A stretch of DNA of 64,000 bases, from the NCBI GenBank assembly GCA_024696155.1, contig JAILHD010000035.1, positions 20,420 to 84,419 of the forward strand, written 5' to 3'. A model generated the notes under the pieces. That model ran no database searches, was not told the DNA's origin, and worked only from the letters and a program-made list of their open reading frames with translations. The translations under genes and the position numbers were made by a program. The first letter of the stretch is position 1; each line of letters begins with the position of its first letter. Shown piece by piece: positions 18,614-46,866 of this stretch. This DNA comes from Treponema sp. Lineage in GTDB: Bacteria; Spirochaetota; Spirochaetia; Treponematales; Treponemataceae.

Positions 18614-18623
18614 GGTGGGCAGA
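18614..18623 (-). promoter_or_regulatory. TCTGCCCACC box upstream of virD4
   Basis: The same 10-mer lies upstream of virB8 (34808-34817) and topB (40204-40213) in the same relative orientation. Confidence 0.6.
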
Positions 18624-18771
18624 AAATGTTTTATTTATGTATTTATTTTAATAATTTATTACATAATATACAATACATAATGTAATTAATTGTATTACAA
18701 GAAAAATATTTTTATTACACAACTTGAAAAAATAAGTGGACAAATCAAAATGTAGATTTTATAATAAAAAT

Positions 18772-18975: not shown

Positions 18976-18978
18976 AAA

Positions 18979-19290: not shown

Positions 19291-19305
19291 AGAGGAACAC
19301 TTAAA

Positions 19306-19941: not shown

Positions 19942-19944
19942 AAA

Positions 19945-20886
19945 ATGAAAAAAACACTACTCGCTTTTACAACAATTGTCGCATTATTATTTGCAAGCTG
20001 TTCAAATTCAGCAGGTTCATCGAATGATGATCCTGCTGAAGAAACCGGAAATAATACAAATATCGGACTTTCAAGCGACAATTCAAACGATACTCCAAAG
20101 ATTACTGACGATAACTCAAATGAAAAAACGTTACTTTATACTTTAAGTTTTGATGCAAACTATCCTTTTGCCACAGGTGTTAGAAAAGATGAAAACAATA
20201 ATTATGTTTATAATTCCACCTTCTTAGATTCTGATGGTAAAGAATATTATTACATGGAAGGTGGCACAGTCGCAGATGACTGTGATGAACAGGCTTCTAT
20301 AACATCAGAAAATTGCATAGTTCTTGAAGCTTCTCCTTTTACTTATTCAAAGTGGTGTTATTTTAATTCAAAACACAAAACTTCAGTATTTGTTGCAGGG
20401 TATAAGTTCAGTCATTATAACACAAATCCAGATGATACTGGCACTTCTTATTATGAAGGTGATACAATTACTCTTACACAAGATACGACACTCTATTGTT
20501 TTTATACTTTTTGGTATGATACAAAAGATGATTCCAATGAGCCATCCAATAATACAAAAAGTCTTACAAATAAAATTACAGGTATTTGGACAATTACAGA
20601 CAGCAGTTACAGCGGTGTACTTACATTAAAACCCGATAATACTGGACACCTAATTTCTTATTTAGGTAACACAATTACCCATGATTTTGATTTTTTTTGG
20701 TCTGTAGCTTATGAAGAAAGCGATTCAAATACACGACTCCTATTATATTTTGGTAAAACAACCCCACACGATAATAATGAAGGATACCATCATATCAGAA
20801 TGAATTATGATTATACATCCATGACATTTAATGAGTATTTAAGTTTTGGTATGCCTTATACAACAACTTGGTATAAACACCACTAA
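19945..20886 (+). CDS. Lipoprotein with an InlB-B/Flg_new-like repeat
   Basis: Lipobox FASC; YTLSFDAN...GYKFSHYNTNPDDTGTSY..GDTITL..DTTLY pattern. Confidence 0.7.
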   Translation: MKKTLLAFTTIVALLFASCSNSAGSSNDDPAEETGNNTNIGLSSDNSNDTPKITDDNSNEKTLLYTLSFDANYPFATGVRKDENNNYVYNSTFLDSDGKEYYYMEGGTVADDCDEQASITSENCIVLEASPFTYSKWCYFNSKHKTSVFVAGYKFSHYNTNPDDTGTSYYEGDTITLTQDTTLYCFYTFWYDTKDDSNEPSNNTKSLTNKITGIWTITDSSYSGVLTLKPDNTGHLISYLGNTITHDFDFFWSVAYEESDSNTRLLLYFGKTTPHDNNEGYHHIRMNYDYTSMTFNEYLSFGMPYTTTWYKHH

Positions 20887-20901
20887 AAACAACAATTTTA
20901 A

Positions 20902-20933
20902 AAGAGAGCTGATCTTTTACGACCAGCTCTCTT
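20902..20933. terminator. Terminator hairpin between convergent genes
   Basis: AAGAGAGCTG...CAGCTCTCTT stem between the two stop codons. Confidence 0.7.
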
Positions 20934-20945
20934 AAACTAGACCTT

Positions 20946-29900: not shown

Positions 29901-31559
29901 AATACCATCTCCAGTAAAATAAAGAGGGGCGTCAAGAAGTGAATCACTTGAAAGAACTTTTACAAGTACTTCAGTTGGATAAACAACCTTTGGATGTTTA
30001 ATTGTAATTACTGCAGTACCTTCTGCTTTTGGTGTAATATATGCATTTCCAAATGTATAAGTAGCGGAAACACTTCTACTACTAAATGCACTTCCATGAG
30101 GAGTTTCAAGATTTATAACATCATTTACACCATCATCTGGCTGCTGACTTACAGTCCAAGTAAAGCCATTTTCATCCCCCTCTACACCACCTTTCAAACT
30201 TACATTGAGTAAAATGGCTTCTGCTCCAACTTTGGTTCTAATATAGTTCTGGCTGGTTGTAATATATGCCGATGCGTCCACAATATTATTTGTAACCTGA
30301 CCTGTAACAATCAAAAGAACTTCTCGGCTGTAAGCAGCTCTTGGATGTGAAATAATAAGTTTTGTACTACCATTAGATTTTCCCTTAACTACTACCTGAT
30401 TTCCAACATAAGATACAATTTCCGCAACATCATAATCATCAAGTTTGTAGTCAAAATCATCAATATCAAAATCTGCTTTGTCTATATTCTGCAATGATGA
30501 AGTTATAATCTGCTGGTCAGAATCATATAATCTGACAATTGTATTATCCGGCTGAATATACACATTCTTTACTATTGTAATAACACGACAAAGAATATCT
30601 AAAGGATAAGACGCATCTGGGTGTGTTATACGAACAGCACAGCTTCCGCTTCTAATCGGTTTTATTACTGCTTTATTCCCATTATATTGAATCTGAATTG
30701 GAACCTCGGAATCATCTTCATTTACAATTTTCCAAGAAAAATTTGAATCAAGAGAAGTTTCTTTTCCATTTACAAGCGATACGGAAACAGTTTGTTCACT
30801 ATCATCTTGATTCATTGTTAAAATGTTATTGCCAGTAGTGATATAGGAAACATTTGTTGCATCTGCAAAAACATAAACACCAATATAATAAGGGTATGCA
30901 GCTTTTTTATGAGTTACTTTAATTCTTGCATATCCCGATTCTTTAGCTGTAATTAAACAATACTGACCTGTTGGCTGAATACTTGCAACAGAAACATTAT
31001 CAATTGTCCATGTATAGCCATCAATATCACTTACATCGCCACCGTAAAGGGAAACATATACTTTTTCAGTAATGCCCGGAGATGTCTGTAATATAGTTGT
31101 ATTTGAATAAATATATGGCTCTGTTGTTGTCTCATAACTTGATTCATATCCAGTAACCGTAATTACACATGTAGCATCATATCCTTGACAAGAACATCTG
31201 AGATATGTCTGCCCTTCCTTTATACCTTTAACAGTTACACCCCAATTTGAAGATGTATCACACTCAATTATTGATTTATCATAAGTCCAAGTCAAAGAAA
31301 CATCTTTCTGTACTGTTTGTGGTCTTACATTAACAGCAATATAGTCCAATGTTCCAACCTTTAAAGACATTGTTGTTTTTGCAAGTGATAATGAATTAAT
31401 AGCTAATTCATTTTTTGGTTTACTACTATTATTAATTTTATCTTCATCATTCTCAGCATCAAAGCTGCTAATCAAACTGCAAGATATTATGCATAAAAGC
31501 ATTGAAAAAAACAGAATGACCGACAGGTGTCGGTTATTTACTTTTTGTTTGGACTTCAT
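20946..31559 (-). CDS. Giant (3,537 aa) Ig-like (Big_2-type) repeat surface lipoprotein, putative adhesin
   Basis: Lipobox IISC; many W.S.(D/N).S(I/V)A.V...G.T.IT repeats; starts 15 nt after the virB10 stop on the same strand. Confidence 0.85.
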   Translation of the reverse strand: MKSKQKVNNRHLSVILFFSMLLCIISCSLISSFDAENDEDKINNSSKPKNELAINSLSLAKTTMSLKVGTLDYIAVNVRPQTVQKDVSLTWTYDKSIIECDTSSNWGVTVKGIKEGQTYLRCSCQGYDATCVITVTGYESSYETTTEPYIYSNTTILQTSPGITEKVYVSLYGGDVSDIDGYTWTIDNVSVASIQPTGQYCLITAKESGYARIKVTHKKAAYPYYIGVYVFADATNVSYITTGNNILTMNQDDSEQTVSVSLVNGKETSLDSNFSWKIVNEDDSEVPIQIQYNGNKAVIKPIRSGSCAVRITHPDASYPLDILCRVITIVKNVYIQPDNTIVRLYDSDQQIITSSLQNIDKADFDIDDFDYKLDDYDVAEIVSYVGNQVVVKGKSNGSTKLIISHPRAAYSREVLLIVTGQVTNNIVDASAYITTSQNYIRTKVGAEAILLNVSLKGGVEGDENGFTWTVSQQPDDGVNDVINLETPHGSAFSSRSVSATYTFGNAYITPKAEGTAVITIKHPKVVYPTEVLVKVLSSDSLLDAPLYFTGDGILKILNGQSKEYTVQLRGTSKSLSDDSSIKWSVDDSRLSVIGNGNIATVNAPAYGTGCTISHITAKHKKADSDKTVLVMTADDEETLNNMKALYADKLYYNFNVDDEIFVTCNHVGFDTESKTTNEAGEEITTYTKFDFSQFKWTVADPSIINVTVNNTSYPLNCVVKGLKSGKTKLIGSISVDGTEYSCEFTMTVYPRGTVKAEPEVYLTTTQNVINLKEKKSSNVSVSAINLPSSEYSNIAWVSGNEGVAKIISNGTSATIVAVSEGETVIKVSHPDSQNTLKIYVRVGSEFVDGSKASTSGAYIKSDDVVTLIVGAEDKKISAAIMNWNAQSNSGFTFKSNNESVAKISSQSKNGVAFISAVSKGYTEIEISHAASKLNKSVLVVVGYTQQEIDNILNEKVYFTTTDNTINFDNVNMSTTIDIKPYNLKTSEYSKISWNSADESVARVFSNGTKATVYSLKKGKTTITASYPGSLNSITFYVFVNAEDVLAEKSGVVYISAPDVISILQDDSSQKIQATLVNYTGVDSSGFAFKSKNESIAKVSSQTKNGIAYISPVNKGYTEIEITHPACKVSKSVLVVVGYTIQEIDSILNENVYLTSTKNTVTFDRVNKLSVVNIKANNLDSSKYYKIDWKSADESVAKVMGNGISASIYSVKKGKTTITASYPGSLNSITFYVFVDTEDIIPVNDDNNSSSGDSGTGSGSGNGGGNAGGSGSNITVPEKESVVYISATDVLSLQTGDSAQQLKAKLVNFTGADSSGFSFKSKNESIAKVESQSKNGVAYISPVSKGYTEIEISHTASKVSKTVLVVVGNTIQESNNTLREKIYLTTSNNTVAFDKVNKSTVVSVKTHNLEEYNYSKITWKSADESIAKVMPNGSSASIYSLKKGKTTITASCPGSLNSITFYVFVDTEDVIPVNDDNNSSSGDSGTGSGSGNGGGNAGGSGSNITVPEKEGVVYISAPDVLSLQTGGFAQQLKAKLVNFTGADSSGFSFKSKNESIARVESQSKNGVAYISPVSKGYTEVEITHTASKVSKSVLVVVGYTQQEIEVILNEKVYLTTSNNTIVFDSVGKSTVVSVKAHNLSFSDNYKINWKSADESIARVISNGTSATVYSVKKGKTTITATYPGSLNSITFYVFVDTEDIIPVTDNNNSSGSGSGNNGSGSGSDSNITVPEKEGVVYISAPDVLSLQTGASAQQLKAKLVNFTVADTSGFSFKCKNESVAKIDSQSKNGVAYIAAVSKGYAEVEITHTASKVSKSVLVVVSSSIQESNATLKEKIYLSTSNNTVFFDRVNKSTVVNIKPHNLEEYYYSKISWKSADESIAKVMANGTSATIYSQKKGKTSITATYPGSLNSITFYVFVDTEDIIPVTDNNNSSGSGSGNNGSGSGSGGNNGSGNGSDSNITVPEKEGVVYISAPDVFSLQLGESAQQLKAKLVNFTGADTSGFSFKCKNESVAKISSQSTNGVAYISAVTKGYTEIDITHTAAKVSKSVLVFVGYTQQEIDAILKESVYFTTSNNTIIFDRANKSTVVTVNAHNLSSSDAYKINWKSTDESIARVMANGTSASVYSIKKGKTSITVSYPGSLNSITFYVFVNTKDIIPVDDDNNSSGSGSGININDPNNGSGGGTGSSVTVPEKEGVVYISAPDVLSLQTGTSAQQLKAKLVNFTGADTSGFSFKCKNESVAKISSQSKNGVAYIAAVSKGYTEVEITHTASKVSKSVLVVVGATTQENNSTLKEKVYLTTSNNTIAFDRINKSTVVSVKTHNLNEYNYSNVSWKSADESIARVVANGTSATVYSVKKGKTTITASYPGSLNSITFYVFVDTEDIIPAVESVVYIAAPDVISMLKDEETQKLQATLVNFTGVDSDGFDFTIDNSSVAKIYAKSSNGVAYIKPVGSGQAEITITHKKSEISKKVLVVVGNSSEELAGFTYMTTSNNVVAIGEGNTKSVSVSVKNSESIIVDGYTWTSSNPSICDVISSGTSAVLKGNKTGTAIITVTNKACKYSLKIIAQVIDPIAAAANPYIQLTSSVMTLTCGNTYTSISAELVGGTDSDKSGFIWSSNDSKIAVVYGQNEVGKVKAVSAGTTYITVSHPKANYSAQILVVCDEEKKTDCYINVPSSIITMKPTDASQIITATLINGSTLDKYNFSWSLDVYDIIDLQYSANVCTITPKQVGTATITVKHPKAAYSQQIIVNVQQYSTFAFPSESMTVTQGDVRFISMQVPSSNVTTHIEYSVENARICSVKGTKSTAQITAVGAGTTTVTAKLVASSTGVVQSKAEMMLYVQEKPVNAVYITSANTITTVNKGKSQSLYASLTGTGVIASDQYELSWTTSDSDIVQVAGIGSDGTVKGQSIYITALKAGEAVITCSHKKAASTLQFYVVVPGKGEKVITLDKSYITIMKGSSGSPLKANIENKESSADYNKIQWACVGSNGNEVCRIMGEGQNVTIYPINVGTATVTAQLTDNGSIARCNVVVEAGKKLTFESTKKTIAPKRTVTCKYTVSPPDAILNWSMAQDKDYFTFADNGCDENGFGTVDIIGNDEGLTGKGVLTCVTDGGAKATITVEVAFDYKLKLNGSTSFTITPDETKTFNYTVEPTDALITIDNSESGEYFDYDIVETDKGTGRIIIKPVKETPKDGIKIKILGKDPAFKNVTFEEKEITAKFKYKNHLTPKVEFVNANGKWSRISNVDDENIFVIGDGENMYFKVTFLEKNADFEFDKIVFSSIVGDIPIEKNLIKGSSEDKTQMFTLVHTQDVIEKVYEIKKLFVPANKNLNWKNGSWYLQTENRPETWGRKGYQDIDKLFFQLTGPGDWYQFLWYEGKDGKQQAPENRDKVEHWVIDLVEDTSMRGVQMSEREFKNYAWLYCPGTPEASFNGTYRTNYKITYDDIVEGNFGTYKNGYYGSALGDDPLLLYVEPYIWKEHVQFDKDINSRDTSLRSGSSEVGYLTLVYKHNGEEVKECIGKVFLELRNCPKDYRP
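24390..28995 (-). repeat. Seven tandem intragenic repeat units (~580-700 bp each, two Ig domains, most joined by Gly/Ser/Asn linkers)
   Basis: Units start with (G/S)VVYISAPDV-like peptides near 28990, 28410, 27720, 27030, 26360, 25660 and 24975; near-identical DNA blocks occur at ~27040-27240 and ~27730-27930. Confidence 0.9.
31519..31534. repeat. 16-bp palindrome variant ACCGACAGGTGTCGGT inside the adhesin signal-peptide codons
   Basis: Both 7-bp arms are perfect; central dinucleotide is GG. Confidence 0.8.
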
Positions 31560-31574
31560 ATTAAGTGCCTCCTT

Positions 31575-32981
31575 TTAGCGTGTCCTTACATATTTTCTAG
31601 TTACTTGATTTATTTGAACTGGTGGGAGTTCAAGCGGAACATTCGTAATCAGCTTGATCTCGGTACCAGCTTTTATCGAAATTGTTGGTTTTATATCCAA
31701 AGCTCTGTCAATAATTTTGTTACCAATTTTTGCGGTTTCTCTATACATATCTGACATTGCATTTTGTAAATACTGATTATTTGTTGTTTTAATATCATTC
31801 ATTGCTTCAGTCTGAATCATCGAATAAATACCAACCATACCAAGAGCTTTTAATGTTTCAAATGGATGATTTGTTACTCGACCTTTATAACCACTTACAC
31901 CCTGTGCATTTACGCCATTCATATTGCCAAGTGTGCATCTGTAACCATCTGGTCTTATAAGTAAATTCCATGCAACCTGTACTTTATTCTGTCCATAGCT
32001 AATGGATGAATTATAAGTTGCATAAAGCAAAGAGCCTTCTGGAATTAAAAGGAAAGAATGGTCATAAGATGAATAAACATTTTCTGTTACACGGGCAATT
32101 ACAACTCCAGGATTATCAGTATTAATTGCAGTAACCAAAGCACCGCTTATAATTGTTCCATCCCACAACGAGTTATACGGCATGAACTGTCCGCTGCCAC
32201 CAGCACCATTGCCATTAGAATAAAACTGCTCTTTATTCTGCTGATAAGCGGCAGCAATTCTAGCACTATCATTGCTGTAAGCACCAACCCCACCACCAGA
32301 GCCATACATCTGATTCTGCAAATCTTTTGTCTGTTTCATCATTTGAGCAATGTATTCTTCTTTAGTTAATCTCTGCCCGCCATTTTGAGCAGACGGATAA
32401 TTGCCATTAAGCACAGAATTTACAGTATTTTGATTAGAACTTGGATTTCCCTGTCCTTTTAATCCATCTATTCTACGAGGTGATTTTGAATTTGGATTTC
32501 TTGTTTCTCGACTACTACTAGAACCAACAGGACTTACTGGAGCTGGAGCTGGATTTGCTTGCGGCTGTAAGTTTGTTGGCAGAGAATTTAAAATATTATC
32601 AATATTTTCCTCTGTTACTTCTTCCTTATCAGTTTCCTCTTTTTCTTTAATTTCCTCTACAACAGGATATTTTTCTTTGAATTCAACCTCATATTTTGTT
32701 CCAGCTTTATCAAGTTCTTTTTGAACAACTTTCTTTTTACTTTTCCTACTCCCAACCACCATTACAATCATAATGATTACTACGATTACTAAAAAAATTA
32801 CACCAAAAGCCGTTCCTGCATTAAACTCTCTGGCTTCATTTTCATCTGTTTCAGGGGGTAAGAGTTCTTCTTCCTCATTATTAATTTCATCAAGCAAATT
32901 AACAGGTTTTGTTTCTAGTGTTGTATCACTATCAAACAAATCAGCAGACTGTTCCTGCCCTCTATTTTCATTATTCTCCAT
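31575..32981 (-). CDS. trbI: T4SS VirB10/TrbI
   Basis: Single TM, Pro-rich linker, GT.I...L.TAINTD.PG, IP.GS.L, W..LIRPDG, I.PTI.I..G. Confidence 0.92.
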   Translation of the reverse strand: MENNENRGQEQSADLFDSDTTLETKPVNLLDEINNEEEELLPPETDENEAREFNAGTAFGVIFLVIVVIIMIVMVVGSRKSKKKVVQKELDKAGTKYEVEFKEKYPVVEEIKEKEETDKEEVTEENIDNILNSLPTNLQPQANPAPAPVSPVGSSSSRETRNPNSKSPRRIDGLKGQGNPSSNQNTVNSVLNGNYPSAQNGGQRLTKEEYIAQMMKQTKDLQNQMYGSGGGVGAYSNDSARIAAAYQQNKEQFYSNGNGAGGSGQFMPYNSLWDGTIISGALVTAINTDNPGVVIARVTENVYSSYDHSFLLIPEGSLLYATYNSSISYGQNKVQVAWNLLIRPDGYRCTLGNMNGVNAQGVSGYKGRVTNHPFETLKALGMVGIYSMIQTEAMNDIKTTNNQYLQNAMSDMYRETAKIGNKIIDRALDIKPTISIKAGTEIKLITNVPLELPPVQINQVTRKYVRTR

Positions 32982-34062
32982 CAGTATTATTAACTCCCGA
33001 AGCAGATTCAGTTTCTTTCTGTATTTTATTTGCTTTAATACGTCCTACTTTTTTCTTTGTTACTGTTACCTTTGCTTTTCCAAGTCTTAATGTAACTTTA
33101 TTAACAAGTCTAGGAATAACAAATACATTTTTCTTAATGCTGTAATTTACAATCTCATTTCTTTCATTAAAAATTAAAGGGAGTTTTTTCTGTAAAACAA
33201 TGTCGTCAACCTGTATATAAGTTGTTGCTCCATCATCGTATACACGTCTTGGTAAAAACTCAGGTTTACGCCATGTTGAATATCTTATTTTGTAATCAAA
33301 AGAAAGAAATTCTGGATTTGTTATTCTTATATAATCATTTTCAATTTCCACAGCTTTATCATGTTCTACTTTTTTCTTTGCCCATTGATTACGGCTATTA
33401 GGATAATTGAAACGAACCATAGACATATAAGTTGAGTTATAAGACTTAAGTCTAAAGTGATAAACTCTGCGGTCTGTAATAATGACTAAAGAGGAATCCA
33501 GTTTTGTGGAAGCAGGTTTAATAAATAGATGTTGAATATCTTCACCAGTAATTGGGTCTTTGGCAACGCCTGCAGTAAGCTCCCATGTTGTTTCATCATC
33601 CGACAAAAGTGGAGTACTTATTACAACCTCCCCTGCCTCCAGAATAATGTCTGTAAGGTGATACGGCTGCCCATAAACCTCATATACAAGATTTTCGTTG
33701 TACTGATAATAAAATGTTCCATCTTTATAGTTTTCTGGAAGAATAGTTGCTTTTTTCTGGCTTTTTACAACAGCGTCAAAACCTGTTTCATTTCCTCGTT
33801 CTGTACTAGGATTTGGTTTCTCAACAGGAATATAAACTGGTCTATCAATATAAACAATTTCTTTTTCATGCTCCTGAGAATCCAAAACATAAATGTTATT
33901 ATTATATTCGTGTTCTTTCTGTTTATCTTTCTTTTCAACTTCACGGCTTACCTGTTTTTTATAATCCTTTTCCAAGTCTTTAGTTGTAGCACAAGCCGAC
34001 AAAAGCATTAAACCAGAGCAAATACCTAACATCTGGCAGCTGATATTTTTAATTTTATACAT
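32971..34062 (-). CDS. trbG: T4SS VirB9/TrbG (lipoprotein-type signal)
   Basis: TDI.L..GE, HLFIKP, L.I.TDRR.Y, P.RVYDDG..TYI motifs; lipobox LSAC. Confidence 0.9.
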   Translation of the reverse strand: MYKIKNISCQMLGICSGLMLLSACATTKDLEKDYKKQVSREVEKKDKQKEHEYNNNIYVLDSQEHEKEIVYIDRPVYIPVEKPNPSTERGNETGFDAVVKSQKKATILPENYKDGTFYYQYNENLVYEVYGQPYHLTDIILEAGEVVISTPLLSDDETTWELTAGVAKDPITGEDIQHLFIKPASTKLDSSLVIITDRRVYHFRLKSYNSTYMSMVRFNYPNSRNQWAKKKVEHDKAVEIENDYIRITNPEFLSFDYKIRYSTWRKPEFLPRRVYDDGATTYIQVDDIVLQKKLPLIFNERNEIVNYSIKKNVFVIPRLVNKVTLRLGKAKVTVTKKKVGRIKANKIQKETESASGVNNTDGE

Positions 34063-34074
34063 TTTAATTTCTCC

Positions 34075-34788
34075 TTATTTATAAATTTCCTTAAAATCAA
34101 AAGCTGTAATATACACACCAAGAGGATTTTCTTTTATATCATCATTACTTGGTTTTAAGACTTTTACACTTACAACAGCTCTGTAAGTTTTACTTTCGCT
34201 AATTGTTCCAGTAAGTAATCTTGTTACAACCTTAAAATCTAATTGATATGTATCTTTAGATAACTGCAATGGCTCAGTTTCAAAAATAACTTCACGGGTG
34301 CGAGTTCCAAAATCCTCGAAAGGTTTTTCTTCTTTTATGCGTAATGAATATTTTGATGCTGTTGTAGAAGTCAAAAGATGATAGGTATTACTAAGTGATT
34401 TTTGCATTACAATTTTATCAGTAGAAAGTGTATAAGCATAATTCACAAACTTTTTAACCTGTGCTTGAATTGCAATTTCAGGAACAACAAAATTCTGAAA
34501 ATTTCTTCTTGAAACTGCTCCTACATAATTCGTTTCTCCGAAATCATTCATTGTAACTAGAACAGGAATAGTTTCTGGAAGTGTAATTGCGAAAAGAGAA
34601 ATACCAATTGAAAGAAAAAAAGAAAGACAAGCAATAACAACAACATATCTCAAAATGCGGTTTTCTTTCATGACTTGACCGCAGATGAAATCAAAGTGCT
34701 GCAATTGCAATGCGTTTACTTCGTTAATTTTAGTTGAATTGAACGGAGTTGTTGGTTCACCTTGTGGGTAAAAACTTTTTGTACTCAT
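34075..34788 (-). CDS. trbF: T4SS VirB8/TrbF
   Basis: Single TM, P.LV....G, C-terminal NPLGVYITAF. Confidence 0.88.
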   Translation of the reverse strand: MSTKSFYPQGEPTTPFNSTKINEVNALQLQHFDFICGQVMKENRILRYVVVIACLSFFLSIGISLFAITLPETIPVLVTMNDFGETNYVGAVSRRNFQNFVVPEIAIQAQVKKFVNYAYTLSTDKIVMQKSLSNTYHLLTSTTASKYSLRIKEEKPFEDFGTRTREVIFETEPLQLSKDTYQLDFKVVTRLLTGTISESKTYRAVVSVKVLKPSNDDIKENPLGVYITAFDFKEIYK

Positions 34789-35188: not shown

Positions 35189-36397
35189 TTACTCTCCTTG
35201 TTTCTTGATGTTCTTTCTGTACTTATGTTTCTTATCATCCTCAATAATGTAAATATCACTGGTGCGTATCTGACGGGCTAAAGCTTTCGTTCCGCCTGAG
35301 ATTGCAATTTCCTTACCAATCAAATTATCTTTTGTAAGCTGCCAGATCGGAACGTAAATATGTTTTTCTCCGTCATTTATTATTATAGCATCATTCCAAG
35401 CTTCATCTTTATCAAATGTGATAACATTTTCGCAAACACCCCTAACCGTTCCACCTGCATAAAGTTCAAGATTACCATTTGACTTTTGCCATTCATCAAA
35501 GTATGTGTTGTAGCGACCTGTTGCAACAAGAACATCTTTCCAATCGTCTTTTAGCACATATCTATCTTCATGTTTTTCTGCAAGTTTAAGTTCACTCAAA
35601 TATGCCAGGCGATTTACAAGTTCTGGCTCAAGATTTTTAATTGATATTGTTTTACCAAATGTTTCAAGAACATCATCAAGTTTAGTCCAGCGTTTTGAAT
35701 TTATCAGACCTTTTCTTGCAGCTTCTATTTCTTGCTCACTTCTCTCTCCTACCATAAGAGTTGAAATGTAAGAAAGAGTTTCTCTGAAAGTGGTTTTCAC
35801 AAGTTCTTTTTGAAAACGAACCTTTAAGCCATTCTTATCTTTTCCATTAATACATAGATGTGCGTGTCTATGCGCTGTATCATTATGAATACAACCTCGC
35901 CAGTAAAGCTGCTGCCCTGTTATTTCTTCAACTCTTTTTATAAACTGTTCAGCAAGAAGTTTCAAATCTACATTCTGATTTTCAGGCGATAAAATCCACT
36001 TATAATGATAAGCTGACATATTTTCATTGTATTCATCTTCTGGTGTTCCAAAAAGCTCCGGCTTTTCTACAACATAATCCTTATTTTCCTGCGGCATATA
36101 AGTATTCAGATATTTTTTATGTACAGTCTTAGAAGGATTGAAAGACTGTTTAAACATTACCCTCTGACGCTTTGGATTAAAAATACTGTCAGCAAAACTT
36201 CCGCCACCATCAAAATGTCCAAAGTTCTTCCAGCTTGAACTTTCATTACTGCGTTTTGTTCTTAGAGATTTCTTCATTAAATCTTCAAGAATACGCATAT
36301 CATCTTTACGAAATGGAACTTTTTTTACTTTATATAAATCTTCTTCTTTTTCTCTTGTTGGTTTATTTGAAAAAATATCTTTAATAGAATGGTTCAT
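35189..36397 (-). CDS. VirD2/MOBP-like conjugative relaxase
   Basis: RQRVMFK...YL..Y motif I, ILSPE motif II, IHNDTAHRHAHLCING HUH motif III. Confidence 0.8.
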   Translation of the reverse strand: MNHSIKDIFSNKPTREKEEDLYKVKKVPFRKDDMRILEDLMKKSLRTKRSNESSSWKNFGHFDGGGSFADSIFNPKRQRVMFKQSFNPSKTVHKKYLNTYMPQENKDYVVEKPELFGTPEDEYNENMSAYHYKWILSPENQNVDLKLLAEQFIKRVEEITGQQLYWRGCIHNDTAHRHAHLCINGKDKNGLKVRFQKELVKTTFRETLSYISTLMVGERSEQEIEAARKGLINSKRWTKLDDVLETFGKTISIKNLEPELVNRLAYLSELKLAEKHEDRYVLKDDWKDVLVATGRYNTYFDEWQKSNGNLELYAGGTVRGVCENVITFDKDEAWNDAIIINDGEKHIYVPIWQLTKDNLIGKEIAISGGTKALARQIRTSDIYIIEDDKKHKYRKNIKKQGE

Positions 36398-37234: not shown

Positions 37235-37417
37235 TTTAAATATCCTTAATGTTTTACAATACTGGATTATGCTTTTATTTTTTGATTATATCATGAATCC
37301 TTAAAATTTGTAATTTATCAATAGCTTATCGTGATAAACACCTTTTTCGCTTTCCATATTCTCCCCTTATCTCTCGACCGACAGCTGTCGGTTCTAATAA
37401 TTCTTCTCTAAACTTTC

Positions 37418-37936
37418 TTATTTGCCGTAATATCTATCATTCGATTCTTGAATCAGTCTTTTGTATTCTTCATCATCTTCGATATATCGGGTATCTTTGA
37501 TATTAAAGTAGCCGTAATCAGAACCGAAAACACAACAGCCTTTACCAATTCTTTCATTCAAAGTTTTGCCGGATTCTGCATAAGCTCCGTCTTTCACTTC
37601 TCGTCTATGTTCTGAAAGCCATTGCCAGACTGTATGCCATTCGTCACGAAGTATAGAAGCACGCTCCGCCATTCGCTTTAGACGTTCTCTTTTTTCTTTT
37701 TGTTCTGCACAGACTTTTTTACGATGTTCTTTTGCTTTTGATTTTTTATCTTCAAGTTCTTCTGCTGTCATTGGTCGAACGTTATCTGGCGAAGCATACC
37801 AAGAACAAACATTACAGAACTGATTTGACCAGAGTTCAACAGCTTTTGAACGGTCTATAATTACATACCCAGCTTTTGCCCACTGGTTTTCCGTTTTCCA
37901 ATCCTTGTATTCAAGGTAATATCCTTTTACTTTCAT
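37418..37936 (-). CDS. Hypothetical protein with two short W-rich motifs joined by a coiled coil
   Basis: WKTENQWAKAG and WHTVWQWLSEH segments; the RBS GAGG lies just after a palindrome copy. Confidence 0.75.
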   Translation of the reverse strand: MKVKGYYLEYKDWKTENQWAKAGYVIIDRSKAVELWSNQFCNVCSWYASPDNVRPMTAEELEDKKSKAKEHRKKVCAEQKEKRERLKRMAERASILRDEWHTVWQWLSEHRREVKDGAYAESGKTLNERIGKGCCVFGSDYGYFNIKDTRYIEDDEEYKRLIQESNDRYYGK

Positions 37937-37939
37937 TAC

Positions 37940-38092
37940 TTACCTCTCAACCGACAGCTGTCGGTCGTCATTATTTTCCTCTTCAATATAATCGCATACA
38001 TCTGCACATACGGATGGATTAATACAACAAGGAAACTTAAGACAACATTTCTGGCATACATTTTCAATCGCTTTTACAAGTTCATTAGACAA
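37940..38092 (-). CDS. Small Cys-rich protein (50 aa, 7 Cys; not in the ORF track)
   Basis: TAAGGAG RBS and TTG start; MSNELVKAIENVCQKCCLKFPCCINPSVCADVCDYIEEENNDDRQLSVER fills the gap between two co-oriented genes. Confidence 0.6.
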   Translation of the reverse strand: MSNELVKAIENVCQKCCLKFPCCINPSVCADVCDYIEEENNDDRQLSVER

Positions 38093-38103
38093 CTTACTTC
38101 TCC

Positions 38104-38748
38104 TTAAGAATTATATTTATCAATTAATTCCTGCATTTCAATTTCTGTTTTTGAAATACTATTTTCTAAATTTGTAATATCTATTTCTTGGTTTTCTAAT
38201 ACATTATTAAATTCAATTTCTGAATTTTTATATCTAAGCCAAGCTTCATATTTAGGAATATCTTCTTCAGATAAAATTGATTCTTCCTTTGCATATGTTT
38301 TGTGAGATTTAATATCTTTCTCTAATTTTTCTACAATAGGAGTAAGTTCTTTTATCCTCCTGTCACAAAAATATAAATCAAAAATTAAACCATCTATATT
38401 TGGCAACTTCTCATTTTTATTCTGTTTTCCAGTGCTATTAAATTTAAGAAGCCCTTCTGTTGTTTTTTCCTTAAGATGTTCCAAATTTGCTATTTCTTTT
38501 AAAACTTTACTAAGACGTTTTTTTAAACAAGCTAAAATATAATTATCTAAAAAAAGATATTCTTCATAATCAGTTTTATGAAAATATATCATCATAAACA
38601 GGGAATCAATTTCTTTAGGAAATCGTATATATCGAACATTATTATTTTCTTCTGCTCTCAAAATTTCATTTGTATTTGGCTGTAATTGATTTACACTTTG
38701 CTTCAGAGCTTCAATTTCCAATAAAATTTGTTCTTTTGTTTTCATCAT
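38104..38748 (-). CDS. Hypothetical coiled-coil protein
   Basis: ORF from the track; start moved to ATG 38748, which follows the GAGG RBS. Confidence 0.7.
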   Translation of the reverse strand: MMKTKEQILLEIEALKQSVNQLQPNTNEILRAEENNNVRYIRFPKEIDSLFMMIYFHKTDYEEYLFLDNYILACLKKRLSKVLKEIANLEHLKEKTTEGLLKFNSTGKQNKNEKLPNIDGLIFDLYFCDRRIKELTPIVEKLEKDIKSHKTYAKEESILSEEDIPKYEAWLRYKNSEIEFNNVLENQEIDITNLENSISKTEIEMQELIDKYNS

Positions 38749-38752
38749 ATTT

Positions 38753-39364
38753 TTACCTCTCAACCGACAGCTGTCGGTTCAAATCTATAAAAACACCAGA
38801 AAAATTAAAAAGCTTATGCCTACCATTACCTGCAGCCCTTTTTAATAATTCTTTCTTTGCTTCTTCAATCAAAGGAAGCAATGTGTATTTTTCATTGGTA
38901 CAAAACTTACTTAAAACTGCTTCTATATTTTCAATCTCAACCAAAGAAAAACTAACAGAAACTGGAGTACAAATTCTTAAAGCACTTGCCCAAGATGAAA
39001 ACCATTTAATATAAGTTTGAACTCGTATTTTTTCCATTTCGATTATTTTCTTATACTCTTCTTCTGTGTTTAATATAGATTTCTCTCTTAAACAAAAAAG
39101 ATAAAAAAATGGTTCATAGCCACCTTTGGATTCTGAATATTCAAAAAAAAGTCTACGCATTATTCCAGAATAATTTCTTAAATAATTTTTATTTTTATTC
39201 CGTACAATTCTCCCCCATGCAATAAACATCTTATCAACGTAATCAGCAAGCTCAGCTTCATCATTTGAGTAAACGCCTGTTTTTAATTTAATCACATAAA
39301 CAGAATAATTCTTTTTTTGAATCAGGTTCAAAATCATTTTTTGCATTCGTTTATTCAAATACAT
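38753..39364 (-). CDS. Degenerate pC194/Rep_1-family rolling-circle Rep homologue (predicted inactive)
   Basis: Motif order matches Rep_1 (GIMRR.....YEPFFYL, W..W..AL, SKFCT, HKLFNFSGVF), but HUH reads FFY and the catalytic Tyr position reads Phe. Confidence 0.55.
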   Translation of the reverse strand: MYLNKRMQKMILNLIQKKNYSVYVIKLKTGVYSNDEAELADYVDKMFIAWGRIVRNKNKNYLRNYSGIMRRLFFEYSESKGGYEPFFYLFCLREKSILNTEEEYKKIIEMEKIRVQTYIKWFSSWASALRICTPVSVSFSLVEIENIEAVLSKFCTNEKYTLLPLIEEAKKELLKRAAGNGRHKLFNFSGVFIDLNRQLSVER

Positions 39365-40227
39365 TTCTACCTCTTTTTTTATTCCGACCGACAGCTGTCG
39401 GTTAATTCCGACATCACTCAGTCAAGATAATACGATACCGTAAAAATGTATTTATTACAATATTGTATTGTTTATGCAATATTACTTTATCTACATTTTA
39501 ATCCTACCTGACATCCTGAACAAAAACAATAAAAATTATTGTGTTACAAACTTATAATAGAAGAAAATAATCTTTGTAATTGCTGAAAATATAACGTAAC
39601 ACAATTAACCGCTGACAATACCGTAATTTAACAGGGCTTGTAACACAAACCATTATCTTGCCGTCAAGGTTAGTATATTTTTATTAGTTAATATATTTTT
39701 AAATAAATTTATTAAGAACCGACAGCTGTCGGTCGGAACTTATAAAAAAACGGCTTCGCCTTACATTTACCGAGCGTAGCCGTAAAGAACCGACACGTGT
39801 CGGTTCTTAGAAATTAAGAAAATGGAAATACTTACAAAATCGAGCGGAGCGAAGTTACTACGAAATCTTTGCACAGCCCGGCGTTTTTAGAAATGAACTC
39901 ATCATCTGGATATTTGTTTTCTTTCTCAAAACTGTCCTAAGCATGTTTAATTGGACAATCTTTTTGAAAACCAAAATTTTTGCAAAAAGTACAATCATTA
40001 AACTCTGCAATTCCGTAAATAAAATCTTTTAATTCTGTATTCATTTTTTGAATACCCCTTTGTTATTTATAATTAAATTTTACAATACTAAAATCAAAAT
40101 GTAATTAAAGTGCCACTTTAATTTTTATAATATTATTTTTGTTTTTTAATATTAATTTACCTATATTGAAAAATTCAGAAATTTATGATTAAATAAATCA
40201 TGCTCTGCCCACCAGAAGGAGCATAAT
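39365..40227. other. Large divergent intergenic region; candidate oriT/origin and control region
   Basis: 863 bp with no long ORF; three palindrome copies (one extends to 24 bp, 39785-39808), TTATCTTG motifs at 39422-39430 (minus) and 39653-39660 (plus), GC-rich hairpin 39751-39782. Confidence 0.5.
40204..40213 (+). promoter_or_regulatory. TCTGCCCACC box upstream of topB
   Basis: Directly before the AAGGAG RBS; identical to the boxes at virD4 and virB8. Confidence 0.6.
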
Positions 40228-42405
40228 TTGCTTATCCTTACGGAAAAGCCATCAGTTGCAAAAGACTTTGCAACTGCATTAAACTGCACTTTTACTAAAG
40301 GTGCGTATATAAATAAAACCACTGTAATTACAAACTGTGTTGGTCATTTATTCAAGGAAGAAGTTCCAGCTCATTACAGAGCTGACTACCCTGTTATCCC
40401 GGAACACTGGGACTACAAATTACCAGAAGATGAAAATCTTGCCAAACACGCAAAGTTTGTAATTTCTCTATTAAAATCCCATAAGAACGACACAATTATA
40501 ATTGCCACTGATGCAGACCGTGAAGGTGAGATTATTGCACGTGAATGTCTGGAACAGGCAGGCATCAAAGACTTTTCTAAATGCAAAAGATTCTGGGTTT
40601 CTCAGGCTCTTACAAAACCTGTAATTCTTCAAGGACTGGAAAATGCAAAACCTCTGGAAGAATATAATCTTCTTGCTTCTCAGGGCTTTGCCCGCCAGCA
40701 CGCTGACTGGCTTGTGGGCATGAACTTCTGCCGTTATATCTCAAATGCTGCAAACACAAAGCTTACAGTTGGAAGAGTTCAGACAGCAATTCTTTCTGCA
40801 ATTAAACAGCGTTGTGATGAAATCGAAAACTTTGTAAGTAAAAAATACTTTCAGCATTATGGATATTTCCGACCGACAGCTGTCGGTTCTAATAATATCT
40901 GCAAAGGTATTTATTTTGAATCAGATGGCGGTTTTTGGAATAAATCATTTGACGATGATTCACGTAAAGAAAACTTAAAAAGTTGTATTGGAAAATCAGC
41001 AAAATTAAAAGACAGTAAGACTGAAAAGAAAGTAAAAAATCCTCCACAGCTTTATAATTTAAACGCTGCACAAAAAGATGCTTTTAAGTTCTTTGGATAT
41101 TCCGCAGATAAAACCTTAAAAATCATTCAGTCATTATATGAAGAATTAAAATGCGTTTCATATCCAAGAACACCGTCAAGAGTTATGGGAAGCGGAAACG
41201 TTGAGCTTTGTAAGAAAGTTGCTGACGAACTTTGTGATTCATATAAAGACTTTGAAAAGGTAAGAGGGCAGATGAATATATCTCTCTCAAATAAGAAGTG
41301 CTTTAATGATGCAAAACTTGAAGCTCACCACGCTTTAATTCCGTTAAAAGCTCTTCCAAAATCAGCCAGCGAAGAACAGTCAAATCTTTATAAACTTATT
41401 CTGGAAAGATTTTTTGTTGCTTTTCTGCCGGAAGAACAATATGAAAAACAGACGTACATCCTTGATGTAGATGCCAACCTTTTTGAAATAACAGGAAAGA
41501 AAGTAATTTCAGCTGGATGGAAAACTCCTGAGTTTTCAGAAATCTTTAAGTATTTATCAACCGACCGACAGCTGTCGGTTCAGGAAGATGAGGAAAATGA
41601 AGAAGATGAGCAGTCATTGGATAACATAAACTGGAACGCTCTTATTCTTTCTGATATTGAAACAAAAGAGAAATGGACTAGACCACCTGCATATTTTAAC
41701 GAAGCCAGTATTTTGTCGTTTATGGAAAATCCAACAAATTCACCTGTGATTGAGCATTCAGAAAATACTGATAAATTAAGAACTTTGATGGTTGTTCCAA
41801 TACGTTCTGGCAGAGGTGTTTCTACAGTTATGCCAACAATCAAAACAAAACTTGTTGGACTTGGAACAGCAGCAACTCGTCATACTTTCATTCCGCTTCT
41901 TCTTAAACGTGGTTATATTGCTTTTGACAAAAAAAACATTGTCTGCACAGATTTAGGCTCTGTACTTCTACAAGCTGTAAAAAATTCTTCAATAAAAGAA
42001 CTTGCTGACATTTATACCACAACAGATTGGGAAGAGCGTCTGGACAGAAATCCTGAAGAATATCTTTCCCAAATTAAAGATTATGTTCGTAATGCCGTAA
42101 AAGAGAACGTTTCTATTAGTATCCCTGTTTCCACAAGCGGGATTAAATGTCCCGTTTGTGGAAAAGATATCCGCAAAGGAAAGTCAAACTGGTACTGCAC
42201 AGGCTATAAAGAGGGCTGCAAATTTACTCTCTGGGAAAATGTAGCCGGAGCAAAGCTGACGGAAAAAGATGTAATCAATTTATGCAGCGGAAAAAAGACA
42301 GGAGTTAAGCACTGTGAGGGTAAGACTGGGAAAGCTTTTGACTGCAAGTTTGAACTTGATGAAGAAAACAAAATCAGATTTGTATTTGGGAGAAGAGATG
42401 AATAA
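40228..42405 (+). CDS. topB: ICE-type DNA topoisomerase III (type IA)
   Basis: LTEKPSVA, ATDADREGE, GRVQT, SYPRT (catalytic Tyr), HHALIP, GLGT.ATR, C-terminal Zn ribbon CPVCG. Confidence 0.93.
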   Translation: MLILTEKPSVAKDFATALNCTFTKGAYINKTTVITNCVGHLFKEEVPAHYRADYPVIPEHWDYKLPEDENLAKHAKFVISLLKSHKNDTIIIATDADREGEIIARECLEQAGIKDFSKCKRFWVSQALTKPVILQGLENAKPLEEYNLLASQGFARQHADWLVGMNFCRYISNAANTKLTVGRVQTAILSAIKQRCDEIENFVSKKYFQHYGYFRPTAVGSNNICKGIYFESDGGFWNKSFDDDSRKENLKSCIGKSAKLKDSKTEKKVKNPPQLYNLNAAQKDAFKFFGYSADKTLKIIQSLYEELKCVSYPRTPSRVMGSGNVELCKKVADELCDSYKDFEKVRGQMNISLSNKKCFNDAKLEAHHALIPLKALPKSASEEQSNLYKLILERFFVAFLPEEQYEKQTYILDVDANLFEITGKKVISAGWKTPEFSEIFKYLSTDRQLSVQEDEENEEDEQSLDNINWNALILSDIETKEKWTRPPAYFNEASILSFMENPTNSPVIEHSENTDKLRTLMVVPIRSGRGVSTVMPTIKTKLVGLGTAATRHTFIPLLLKRGYIAFDKKNIVCTDLGSVLLQAVKNSSIKELADIYTTTDWEERLDRNPEEYLSQIKDYVRNAVKENVSISIPVSTSGIKCPVCGKDIRKGKSNWYCTGYKEGCKFTLWENVAGAKLTEKDVINLCSGKKTGVKHCEGKTGKAFDCKFELDEENKIRFVFGRRDE

Positions 42406-42811
42406 CACAGACTCACTAAATGAATCAGTAACAAAAGGAACCTTATACCGCTATGGTTTTGATAGACACAATACAGCCAATAAAATATGTGCTGTCCTTA
42501 AATATCTTTTTCTCACGCATCCCAATTTACAGATGCCGGAACTAAGAGGTATTTTTGAGCAGAAATTTGCGGCAAATCTCCTTACTGAAATAATATTAAA
42601 CTCACGATGGTATAAGGATTCAGTTACGATAGTGGACGAATTATCTTTTTTCAGTAAGGATGACTATACTTATACATTCAATAAGTTTCTTACTTTATAT
42701 GATGAACTTTCAGAATACATAAAGAAAGTAAATGTTAATTTATCCATAGAAAGTTTTTCATCAAATTATGACGGTGGTTATTATGGTGAAATATACGACA
42801 ATGCAAAGTAG
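42398..42811 (+). CDS. Hypothetical protein
   Basis: ATG 42398 overlaps the topB stop; followed by a palindrome copy. Confidence 0.65.
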   Translation: MNNTDSLNESVTKGTLYRYGFDRHNTANKICAVLKYLFLTHPNLQMPELRGIFEQKFAANLLTEIILNSRWYKDSVTIVDELSFFSKDDYTYTFNKFLTLYDELSEYIKKVNVNLSIESFSSNYDGGYYGEIYDNAK

Positions 42812-42946
42812 ATAAGCGACCGACACGTGTCGGTTATAAGGAGAATAGAGATATGAACAAACAAATTCAACTAAAAGCATCAAAAACAAACAAATAGAAT
42901 AAGTTTTTAGGAAAAAAGAAAACTTAATTATAAGGAAGGTTAAAAA

Positions 42947-43537
42947 ATGATTACATTAGATTACTATGATGATAATACGGTCAGAGACAATGCCGTATTT
43001 TTTACGTTGAATAAGATTTTTGCAATCGTCATTGCGTCTTATTTGTCGATTGGTTTTTCCATATATAAGCTTTATAAATTTGAACTTGAAGGAAATACTC
43101 AGACTGCTCAGATTGCTTTTTTTGTAAGCATTTTGGCAATTAGTTTCATGACAGTTTTTATTTGTATGATGCTTTATTTTAACAGACGTGATAATGAATT
43201 ATATTCAAGAAATGACCTTATGAAGCTTAAAAGAAATTACGAATCTGAAAGAGAAAAGGTTCTGAAAGAACATAGTTATAATTATTCTATTTTTACCATT
43301 TATTGGGATACTATTGATAAGGAAATATTTTGCGATACTTTTTCAGTGGATAATAACGGTTATGTATATATTATGAACTCTGATTCTGATGCTGTACTTG
43401 ATGAATCTGAAAATAACAAAGAAAAATATCATCACATAGTTGATAACCGTGACGGCCATACCCTTACTGTAAAAGAACTGAAAGAAAAGTACCTATCAGA
43501 AAATATTAATGGTAAATCACAAAAAGAAGGTAATTAA
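42947..43537 (+). CDS. Hypothetical membrane protein (2 TM)
   Basis: Two hydrophobic segments; AAGGAAGG RBS. Confidence 0.7.
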   Translation: MITLDYYDDNTVRDNAVFFTLNKIFAIVIASYLSIGFSIYKLYKFELEGNTQTAQIAFFVSILAISFMTVFICMMLYFNRRDNELYSRNDLMKLKRNYESEREKVLKEHSYNYSIFTIYWDTIDKEIFCDTFSVDNNGYVYIMNSDSDAVLDESENNKEKYHHIVDNRDGHTLTVKELKEKYLSENINGKSQKEGN

Positions 43538-43627
43538 TGTTTTAAACCTATTTTTTATTCAGAGGGGGAGTAAATAAAATGAATAAACTTCAATGTTTAA
43601 GGCAGACTGCAAAAGATTTTATCAAAA

Positions 43628-43729
43628 ATGAGTAGAGAATTTTTATATATTTTATTTCCAGCGTTAGTTGGGGTTCTTTTTTATTACTATTGGAATAATG
43701 AAGATGAAGATGGTGATTCAAATAAATAG
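43628..43729 (+). CDS. Small single-TM peptide (33 aa)
   Basis: MSREFLYILFPALVGVLFYYYWNNEDEDGDSNK; its stop is 1 nt before a palindrome copy. Confidence 0.45.
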   Translation: MSREFLYILFPALVGVLFYYYWNNEDEDGDSNK

Positions 43730-43774
43730 AACCGACAGCTGTTGGTCAAAATAAAAAGTTTTAGGAAATATAAA

Positions 43775-44149
43775 ATGAAAAAGTTAATAAGTTTAATAAT
43801 GATTGTTTGTGTTTATGCAACAAATCATTATTTTGAAAGAATACTGGGAATAGAAATCACAGTTGAAAACAAAATTATTTCAGCGATAACTGTAATATTA
43901 ATTTGCAGTTTTGAAATCATTTGGGAAATAATAGAAAAAATTGAATTCAAAAAGTTATCAAAATTTAGTGGGCAAGACTTATCAAATTTTAATTTGGAAG
44001 CTCTAAGCAATTTAAATAAAAAATATTTAAGATTTAGTAGAGGAATAATTTTTTGTTCAAAAATCAGACATAAAGAACTTGCAAAAGAAGCTGATAGAAT
44101 ACAGGATGAAATCATAACCAGAATATTTCTGAATGATGGGAATTTATGA
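43775..44149 (+). CDS. Hypothetical membrane protein bracketed by palindromes
   Basis: MKKLISLIMIV... with two hydrophobic stretches; palindromes at 43731 and 44150. Confidence 0.65.
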   Translation: MKKLISLIMIVCVYATNHYFERILGIEITVENKIISAITVILICSFEIIWEIIEKIEFKKLSKFSGQDLSNFNLEALSNLNKKYLRFSRGIIFCSKIRHKELAKEADRIQDEIITRIFLNDGNL

Positions 44150-44203
44150 ACCGACAGCTGTCGGTTGAGTAGGTGAGCAATAATTATTTAATAATAGAAA
44201 AAC

Positions 44204-45169: not shown

Positions 45170-46288
45170 CTACTCAAATAGTTCATTCACAACATTTCTT
45201 GCAGGCTGCAAAGCTTGGCACATATCAGAAATCATCATACGTGTATAATATTCTGTCATTTCAGTTGAAGAATGTCCCACCATTTTTCTTACATCTTCTA
45301 CGGAAAATGCTGTTCTCATTTTCGTTACATAAGTAAAACGAAGTGAATGTGGCACAAACTTTTTTCCAGCAGTATTTACACCGCTTAATCTTAAAACTTT
45401 CTTAAAAGTATGTTCTAAATGACAGTTCGTATATGTTTTTTCTAAGTCATTTAAAAATAAAAAATCATTTGAAGTTAAACCTTTGAGATTAATATAGTTA
45501 ATAAGTTCAATTAAAATTTTATCTGGAATTGGAACACAACGTATTTTCTGGTCGTTTTCGTTTCCTTTTTTATTATAATTTGTACGTATTCCGTTTCTCT
45601 TTAAAAATCCATCTACAATTAGTACACCTTCTCGAATCTTTATTTGTCGTACCTGTAAAGCCCTAGCTTCTCCAAGTCTTAATCCGCAAGCTGATGTGAC
45701 GTAAAACAACAACCATTCTTTATATGAATCCCATAAGTTTTTATTAAAAATTAAATTAAGCTCTTGTTCCGTAAAAACGTCAGGTTTTCTTGAGTTTCGT
45801 GCAAATCTTTGAAATTTTGGTTTTTGAACTGGAGTTTTACATTTCCATATAGTTTCATCATAAATATTTCCAAAAGTTTCAAGATAGAAGTTTTTCCAAG
45901 AACCAGAATGAATATCATCTTCAAGAAGGTAATTTTCTATTTCTGAAATTTTTAATTCATTAATTTTTTTGTTTCCAAATGATTTTATAATTAATTCAAT
46001 AAACTGTCTTTTTTGTTGAATAGTATCTGCAGAAAGAGTTTTTCCAAACTTTTTAAGCCTTTTTAAATGTTCACTTTCACTCAAAAACATATCACTGGCA
46101 ATGTTTTTAATTAAGTATTGATTATCTAGTAATAGTCTTTTTTTGAAATTAGAAATAAATAACAAAGCATCTGATTCTGTTTTACATCCTTTGCAAGTTT
46201 TTACCCTCTTTTTTTCACCATCTTTGTATGTAAAATACCAAGATACTTTTTCTCCAGTAATTCTACTTAGAAGCTCAAAATCTTTCAT
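45170..46288 (-). CDS. Tyrosine recombinase / integrase
   Basis: GLRLGE (R), PHSLRFT (HxxR), VGHSS..MT..Y (H, Y); next to the tRNA. Confidence 0.93.
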   Translation of the reverse strand: MKDFELLSRITGEKVSWYFTYKDGEKKRVKTCKGCKTESDALLFISNFKKRLLLDNQYLIKNIASDMFLSESEHLKRLKKFGKTLSADTIQQKRQFIELIIKSFGNKKINELKISEIENYLLEDDIHSGSWKNFYLETFGNIYDETIWKCKTPVQKPKFQRFARNSRKPDVFTEQELNLIFNKNLWDSYKEWLLFYVTSACGLRLGEARALQVRQIKIREGVLIVDGFLKRNGIRTNYNKKGNENDQKIRCVPIPDKILIELINYINLKGLTSNDFLFLNDLEKTYTNCHLEHTFKKVLRLSGVNTAGKKFVPHSLRFTYVTKMRTAFSVEDVRKMVGHSSTEMTEYYTRMMISDMCQALQPARNVVNELFE

Positions 46289-46750: not shown

Positions 46751-46793
46751 CAAGAGAATAAAAAAGTTTATTTACTTATTCTGTAAGTAATTA

Positions 46794-46866
46794 TCGGGCA
46801 AGAGGGATTTGAACCCCCGACATCCTGGTCCCAAACCAGACGCGCTACCAGCTGCGCTATTGCCCG
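46794..46866 (-). tRNA. tRNA-Pro (TGG); ICE attachment site
   Basis: Reverse complement CGGGCAATAGCGCAGCTGGTAGCGCGTCTGGTTTGGGACCAGGATGTCGGGGGTTCAAATCCCTCTTGCCCGA folds as a cloverleaf with anticodon TGG; no encoded CCA. Confidence 0.97.

Follow-up and report, generated by a model that had tools for sequence, protein, structure and literature searches.

The element and its palindromes

The 64,000-nucleotide stretch analysed here (the window) comes from Treponema sp. (contig JAILHD010000035.1, positions 20,420 to 84,419 of the forward strand; contig C19 below) and contains the right part of a conjugative element, in which a 16-bp palindrome, ACCGACA-nn-TGTCGGT with two free centre bases, recurs many times. 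The element is complete on the contig, measures 66.7 kb and is bounded by 47-bp perfect repeats of the 3' end of tRNA-Pro (C19:509-555 and C19:67211-67257). From sequence comparisons and structure models, the palindrome is likely to be the loading site, either a parS or a KorB-type operator, of a ParB-like protein encoded by the element itself. The main genes and landmarks are the following (window coordinates, unless the contig is named).

8534..34788, minus strand: VirB/VirD4 conjugation genes of the element
35189..36397, minus strand: relaxase (weak Pfam match); relatives carry sites in frame in this gene
38753..39364, minus strand: 203-aa protein with a predicted HUH/Rep-like fold, without HxH; a rival candidate for binding the sites
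40228..42405, plus strand: DNA topoisomerase III, 725 aa, with two sites in frame
45170..46288, minus strand: tyrosine integrase of the element
46792..46838: attachment repeat of 47 bp, at the 3' end of tRNA-Pro; the other copy, C19:509-555, lies 0.3 kb before parA
C19:829-1626, left of the window: ParA gene (AAA_31 match)
C19:1825-2916, left of the window: ParB-like gene, 363 aa, with a ParB-fold model

The window contains 12 exact copies of the palindrome and one copy with one mismatch.

14912..14927: centre CG; between virB11 and virB2
31519..31534: centre GG; in frame inside a 3537-aa Ig-domain gene, close to its start
37377..37392: centre GC; between the open reading frame (ORF) 37418-37936 and the Fic gene
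37950..37965: overlaps the 3' end of a 50-aa ORF and is followed by GAGAGG, resembling a ribosome-binding site (RBS)
38763..38778: overlaps the 3' end of the HUH-fold gene; slot kept in relatives; edge of the alignment to a close relative
39387..39402: 22 nt upstream of the HUH-fold gene start
39718..39733: divergent intergenic region
39789..39804: centre CG; about 440 nt upstream of topoisomerase III
40872..40887: in frame, topoisomerase III codon ~218
41564..41579: in frame, topoisomerase III codon ~449 (variable loop)
42819..42834: centre CG; 7 nt past a stop codon, within a segment absent from the close relative
43731..43746: one mismatch; 1 nt past the stop codon of a small ORF
44150..44165: immediately past the stop codon of ORF 43742-44149

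A preliminary description of this DNA had listed the same thirteen positions, all of them correct, and its remark that the arms are almost invariant while the centre varies also holds: the arms are exact in 12 of the 13 copies, and the centre is GC in nine (43731 included), CG in three and GG in one. The asymmetric extension that it had noticed on several copies, AACCGACAGCTGTCGGTCGGAA, occurs three times. Its picture of sites placed at gene junctions, in an array of small genes, has to be qualified. Many sites do abut junctions or RBSs, but 40872, 41564 and 31519 lie in frame inside genes, and the right arm of the array opens with the large topoisomerase III gene.

Confinement of the palindrome to the element

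Shuffled versions of the window contain on average 0.00-0.01 copies of the palindrome, and the observed count is matched in none of 100 shuffles. When the whole host assembly (2.4 Mb, 86% complete) is scanned, 13 exact and three one-mismatch copies are found, 15 of these 16 on C19, between positions 4801 and 64584. All the exact copies and two of the three one-mismatch copies are located inside the element (C19:509-67257), including two beyond the window, in the element's left part (C19:4801, exact; C19:17991, one mismatch). The sole copy outside the element is a one-mismatch sequence on contig C121, and none is present in the 17.1 kb of host DNA within the window. Within this genome, the motif is thus confined to this integrative and conjugative element (ICE) and missing from the host part of the window, as had been proposed.

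Three other explanations of the motif are ruled out. A host-wide repeat of the REP type does not fit a single one-mismatch copy beyond the element in 2.4 Mb, nor the several copies in coding frames. Restriction avoidance does not account for the GC centre, as the host shows no depletion of CACGTG (observed/expected 1.39). A role as terminator is discarded because two sites alone scored terminator-like.

A ParA and ParB-like pair in the left part of the element

It had also been suggested that the palindrome could be a parS site or operator for a ParB-like protein of the element, although none was seen in the window. The window indeed contains no such gene, but parA and a ParB-like gene are found inside the same element, 18-20 kb to the left of the window (C19:829-2916). 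The suggestion gains support from the presence of this protein, from the confinement of the motif to the element, and from its being kept or replaced in relatives (see below).

ParA matches AAA_31 (E 4e-29), the NCBIfam ParA models remaining below their cut-offs, and its gene ends 198 bp before the ParB-like gene. The structure model of the ParB-like protein (mean pLDDT 72.6) matches Noc, ParB and KorB structures in Foldseek (E 1.5e-7 to 6e-7), with a TM-score, relative to the target, of 0.68 to the KorB complex 8qa9 and of 0.65 to Caulobacter ParB 6t1f. In its GxxR box, G98-Y-T-R101, residues G98, T100 and R101 are invariant in 79 homologues. As modelled, the protein has a ParB N-domain and a helix-turn-helix fold. 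Sequence searches against the PDB were weak, and the register to the Caulobacter residues is taken from the G-x-S turn rather than from an alignment. The host has its own canonical ParB, on contig C138, and four canonical parS-like sites, on contig C173. No relative was found in the viral contigs scanned with the ParB-like protein.

Motif families and conserved slots in related elements

Proteins homologous to those of the element bear Treponema names. Matches to the ParB-like protein are found in 127 of the 338 genomes of the genus. The exact 14-mer of the palindrome is found in 51 of the 338, at three copies or more in 22, and no genome has more than a single copy of a reversed control. A close ParB homologue (E<1e-60) is encoded in 17 of these 22 genomes. 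Among the remaining five, ParB is distant or partial in G078 and G253, and no match at E 1e-10 is found in G069, G080 or G300. In G078, three sites lie within 420 bp past an ATPase-like gene, on a 2.2-kb contig without any match to an element gene (L207). Among the matches listed for all species genomes (80 loci, from 6 of 64 parts), single matches are seen except in records with 15 and 2 copies. One record titled Lachnospiraceae (L087-L089) carries 15 sites in 20 kb together with the same element genes; it may be mislabelled or a duplicate and was not counted separately.

Six more elements, of full or nearly full length, carry 6 to 22 exact copies each, and the same slots recur: upstream of ssb, in the parA-parB interval (in G355, G332 and G330), in the N-terminal part of the relaxase, at the 3' terminus of the 203-aa gene, and both upstream of and inside topoisomerase III. 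The sites are both dispersed and position-conserved across related elements. The centre is CG in 61 of the 63 copies of the six relatives, as opposed to GC in 9 of the 13 copies here. In seven elements of motif family A, 122 of 152 half-sites have GAA or CGA as the three bases just outside the arm, and recognition may therefore extend over about 20 bp.

Elements with a diverged ParB have different 16-mers, of the same build and in the same slots, with the half-sites AGCGCAAC, AGCGAAAC, AGCGTCAC, ACCGYCAC, WGTGCCAC, GGTGACAC and GTRGCAAC. When 33 elements are scored against all families, 28 exactly match some family, five have no match, and three exact matches fall off the element's own family. 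Conservation in related ICEs, which the preliminary description had put forward as a check, is thus observed in a particular form, the palindrome being kept or replaced family by family in the same slots. A circular plasmid (NC_015386.1) also carries a member of the family, with parAB and four family-F sites around its topoisomerase gene.

The in-frame site at topoisomerase III codon ~218 illustrates this replacement. The element's own motif family occupies this slot in 20 of 30 topoisomerase genes. The encoded peptide depends on the motif family, reading PTAVGS, PTRVGS, AKRFAH or AQRCVP. A DNA site thereby rewrites a protein loop. All these results show that the motif is confined to an element that itself contains parA and a ParB-fold gene, and that relatives keep the slots while changing the sequence.

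The variable loops of topoisomerase III also hold foreign DNA: the loop at window positions 41730-41840 resembles a stretch in the virD4 region of G278, and a loop of the G249 enzyme (L178) resembles a Bro-N gene. The G278 and G332 elements (L132-L135 and L156-L159) have large internal inversions relative to the element of the window. G278 has lost its relaxase and virB8-10 matches, and may for this reason be transfer-defective, yet it retains seven perfect sites. A distant element, G073 (L162-L165, element positions 60779-68976), has a different kind of repeat, an oriented, hairpin-like 22-mer with arms TAGCGCC and loop CGAA, of which at least six copies surround the relaxase and topoisomerase genes.

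Suggestive covariation of the motif with the recognition helix

Motif distance between elements was compared with the divergence of several proteins, leaving out ten near-duplicate elements, G073 (oriented 22-mer and distant ParB), G194 (two sites with another spacing) and G266 (site-less). For 18 helix-turn-helix positions of the ParB-like protein, rho is 0.64 in 20 elements and 0.48 in 14 thinned elements. The corresponding values are 0.21 and 0.07 with the ParB N-domain, 0.35 and 0.24 with topoisomerase, and 0.44 and 0.28 with the relaxase. In 19 elements (G330, whose topoisomerase is partial, being left out), the helix set, with a rho of 0.62, exceeds all 3000 random position sets drawn from the ParB N-domain and all 3000 drawn from topoisomerase; in the 14 thinned elements, its rho of 0.48 is reached by 0 and 14 of 3000 sets, respectively.

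Individual residues follow the same trend. Where half-site position 2 is C (eight elements), residue 177 is always Glu; where that position is G or T (11 elements), residue 177 is never Glu. Arg182 accompanies C at half-site position 6 in 12 of 12 elements, the one exception, G127 (Lys), being among the other seven. Some cases depart from kinship and are helpful here: G249 belongs to the main clade, yet has Lys177 and an altered motif; G035, on the one hand, and G027 and G036, on the other hand, fall in separate ParB clades with a common helix and motif; and G308, on a long branch, keeps the helix and has near-type sites. Finally, among 33 new loci (the mis-extracted L221 included), eight have a perfect site, which is of the predicted family in all eight.

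Several points nevertheless weigh against assigning the sites to the ParB-like protein. Its sequence gives no match in a Pfam search, ParB_N included, its match to TIGR00180 is far under the cut-off (21.8 versus 58.45 bits), and its second nucleotide box reads LQVDR where ENxxR is expected; according to PMC12704722, nucleotide choice cannot be predicted from sequence. Some elements have few sites (none in G266, one or two each in G194, G108 and G272), and in five elements ParB and sites are on separate contigs, so that their pairing is assumed. The motif families were defined on the same elements that were later scored, both in the 33-element matrix and in the covariation test, and the 18 helix positions were picked after inspection of the alignment, among kin that are not independent. 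In an unbiased scan of about 1,900 12-residue windows from seven proteins, the top window is relaxase 14-25 (rho 0.68), and windows of the relaxase, SSB, the 203-aa protein and topoisomerase outrank the best ParB window, which comes tenth (0.53) and is absent from the thinned top 12. At the eight new loci with a perfect site, the nearest neighbour by N-domain predicts the same family in eight cases out of eight, and the other 25 of the 33 loci have no perfect site. The number of independent motif switches is small. The motif family follows the ParB recognition-helix residues better than other parts of ParB, but, as the unbiased scan favours other windows and kinship predicts equally well, this covariation is no more than suggestive.

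Other candidate binders and roles

One alternative is that the 203-aa HUH/Rep-fold protein (38753-39364) binds the sites or spreads them, as a REP-associated tyrosine transposase (RAYT) would, and that ParB merely shares their descent. Its gene has sites on both sides, and its model matches HUH domains (Z 7.6 to SIRV1 ORF119, 7.0 to a Helitron transposase and 5.5 to TnpA-REP), but with Z below 8 this could reflect a common fold; Foldseek gives no match under E 0.001, and the HxH motif is absent from the aligned homologues. Such homologues are present in most elements and some windows of the protein correlate with the motif (rho 0.60-0.66). In the same elements, however, the whole protein reaches a rho of 0.47, versus 0.72 for the ParB helix (0.15 versus 0.46 when thinned), and no homologue was found in G278, G027, G036, the second contig of G360 or G308, which all have sites and a ParB. 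Moreover, the hallmark of REP/RAYT systems, repeats across the chromosome outside genes, is not seen here, with one one-mismatch copy beyond the element. We consider this protein an unlikely binder.

Also in its favour is G069, a 99% complete genome with five perfect sites and a 203-aa homologue, in which no ParB match is found. G069 is the main unexplained case and adds to the points against a ParB site. It contains a small integrated element (L206:8168-13990) with an integrase, an XRE-like gene, a toxin-antitoxin-like gene, the 203-aa homologue and a ~97-bp tandem repeat bounded by sites. This element is best read as a putative satellite or deletion remnant.

The preliminary description had alternatively proposed that the palindromes are recombination sites delimiting exchangeable cassettes, at which single genes are gained or lost. 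In seven element pairs, alignment ends fall near a site (within 40 bp) about twice as often as expected (13 of 246, versus 6.2), but the conserved, GC-rich motif is itself prone to anchor alignment ends, the other 233 ends are away from sites, and aligned blocks run across 50 of 69 sites. The close relative (contigs of run X5, one of 4 runs compared out of 16 listed, 94-98% identical in the best-matching parts) is informative in this respect. One alignment to it does stop at 38779, the end of site 38763. However, it lacks the Fic gene (joint 36397-37422) and, separately, two genes past topoisomerase (joint 42394-43625), and in both cases a site is lost along with the genes, none being left at the joint. 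Sites within the topoisomerase and relaxase genes cannot delimit whole genes either. The cassette proposal is therefore not upheld and appears quite improbable. Recombination may occasionally take place at sites, given that some duplications end there: in G332 and G360, extra genes are framed by direct repeats (70 to more than 100 bp) that end at a site; in G336, the tandem paralogues are site-bounded, as is the G069 tandem repeat; and the G278 inversion has one of its ends at a site. The sites sometimes act as repeat ends without defining cassettes.

Finally, it is very improbable that the sites are operators, unrelated to ParB, of the ribbon-helix-helix protein 15912-16355, the XRE protein 46291-46626 or ORF 7545-8168: many sites abut RBSs or gene junctions and the covariation test was restricted to other proteins, but perfect 16-mers in coding loops and slots kept with a changed sequence are easier to reconcile with a loading site than with a promoter operator, and promoter-like matches are not more common than by chance (32, versus 39.5 in shuffles).

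Proposed mechanism and comparison with known systems

If the palindrome is the loading site of the ParB-like protein, each subunit of a ParB dimer would read one half-site through its helix-turn-helix, and ParB would load as a clamp and then spread. Excision would join the ends of the element, and the coordinates imply that the 11-site cluster would then stand 3-10 kb before parA; ParA could then segregate the excised circle. As the sites of the element differ from the host parS, element and chromosome would not compete. In the transfer region, the outlying sites found at gene junctions may, more speculatively, add a KorB-like repression. Since ParB loading would be independent of exact position, new sites could be tolerated in variable protein loops or next to an RBS. 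Partition and KorB-like repression by ParB are what we infer from this arrangement.

A more far-reaching and tentative possibility, which we find rather doubtful, is that of an address code: lineages would switch two or three ParB recognition residues and all sites would be rewritten in concert, even within the topoisomerase III and relaxase frames, by active copying or conversion between sites, keeping co-resident elements compatible. ParB-less satellites, such as that of G069, would hijack the code, and the shift to a GC centre would be a trace of copying.

Known systems offer partial parallels. The closest in structure, by its best TM-score, is KorB/OB with IncC on IncP plasmids (PMC11790492, PMC13768133), where a ParB-family clamp with a ParA partner uses twelve dispersed, position-conserved operators over about 60 kb. 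The OB sequence is however reported to be the same in IncP-alpha and IncP-beta, whereas in the Treponema elements the slots are kept and their motif changes from one family to another; in addition, the Treponema system sits on an integrated element, in which no KorA- or TrbA-like partner was identified. In the Bsr systems of Burkholderiales secondary replicons (PMC5450999), related ParBs each have their own parS-like 16-bp palindrome, mostly with a central CG, read as avoiding incompatibility. Those systems belong to proteobacterial chromosomes and plasmids, whereas the half-sites here are GC-rich, present at 3-22 copies per element, and many are in frame in conserved genes.

ParB-like proteins on integrative elements are already known (PMC12409273, PMC4489591). 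BisD of ICEclc (PMC12409273) is an ICE-encoded ParB-like protein that loads at palindromes of its element, bisS, as is predicted here, but it has two sites and an activator domain, as opposed to a short helical, acidic tail and up to 22 candidate sites in our case. Chromosomal ParB/parS and Noc/NBS (PMC7383237) also use a 16-bp palindrome, and a few residues of the helix-turn-helix and next helix switch specificity. Two specificities are described there, versus at least eight motif families here, where the residue register is derived from the G-x-S turn. The mimicry of IncC plasmid parS by SGI1 (PMC10954446) is a precedent for a small ParB-less element with parS-like sites, such as that of G069, although a helper relationship is not shown for the latter. 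No account of these Treponema elements or sites was found in the literature covered, which lacked most subscription papers. Compared with known ParB systems, the new features are the number of motif families, the conservation of slots with a change of sequence, and the in-frame sites that rewrite protein loops.

If the sites are indeed read by the ParB-like proteins, a single protein family would provide at least eight natural ParB-site pairs and a candidate two-residue code. This would bear on the diversification of DNA-binding specificity and could provide orthogonal tags for locus imaging. It would also point to a plasmid-like, actively partitioned phase of gut Treponema conjugative elements.

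Other features of the element

The gene 3' of the ParB-like gene scores with HTH_36 and phage replication-initiator clusters and contains three internal repeats. It is probably a phage-type replication initiator (L001:3450-4544), with three GGTAAAC-n-GTTTACC repeats, and relatives have other repeats in the same place. This is a candidate origin for the circular form, and the presence of such a probable initiator fits a replicating circle. Besides the initiator, two ssb genes are found further downstream of the ParB-like gene.

The element also carries (window 20946-31559; L001:8226-19912) the 3537-aa Ig-domain gene, a 2709-aa methylase/SNF2/RadC gene, a MuF-domain gene and two ArdC-like genes. 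At the left boundary (C19:121-555; L001), three partial copies of the tRNA-Pro 3' end are stacked, which suggests earlier integrations at the same place.

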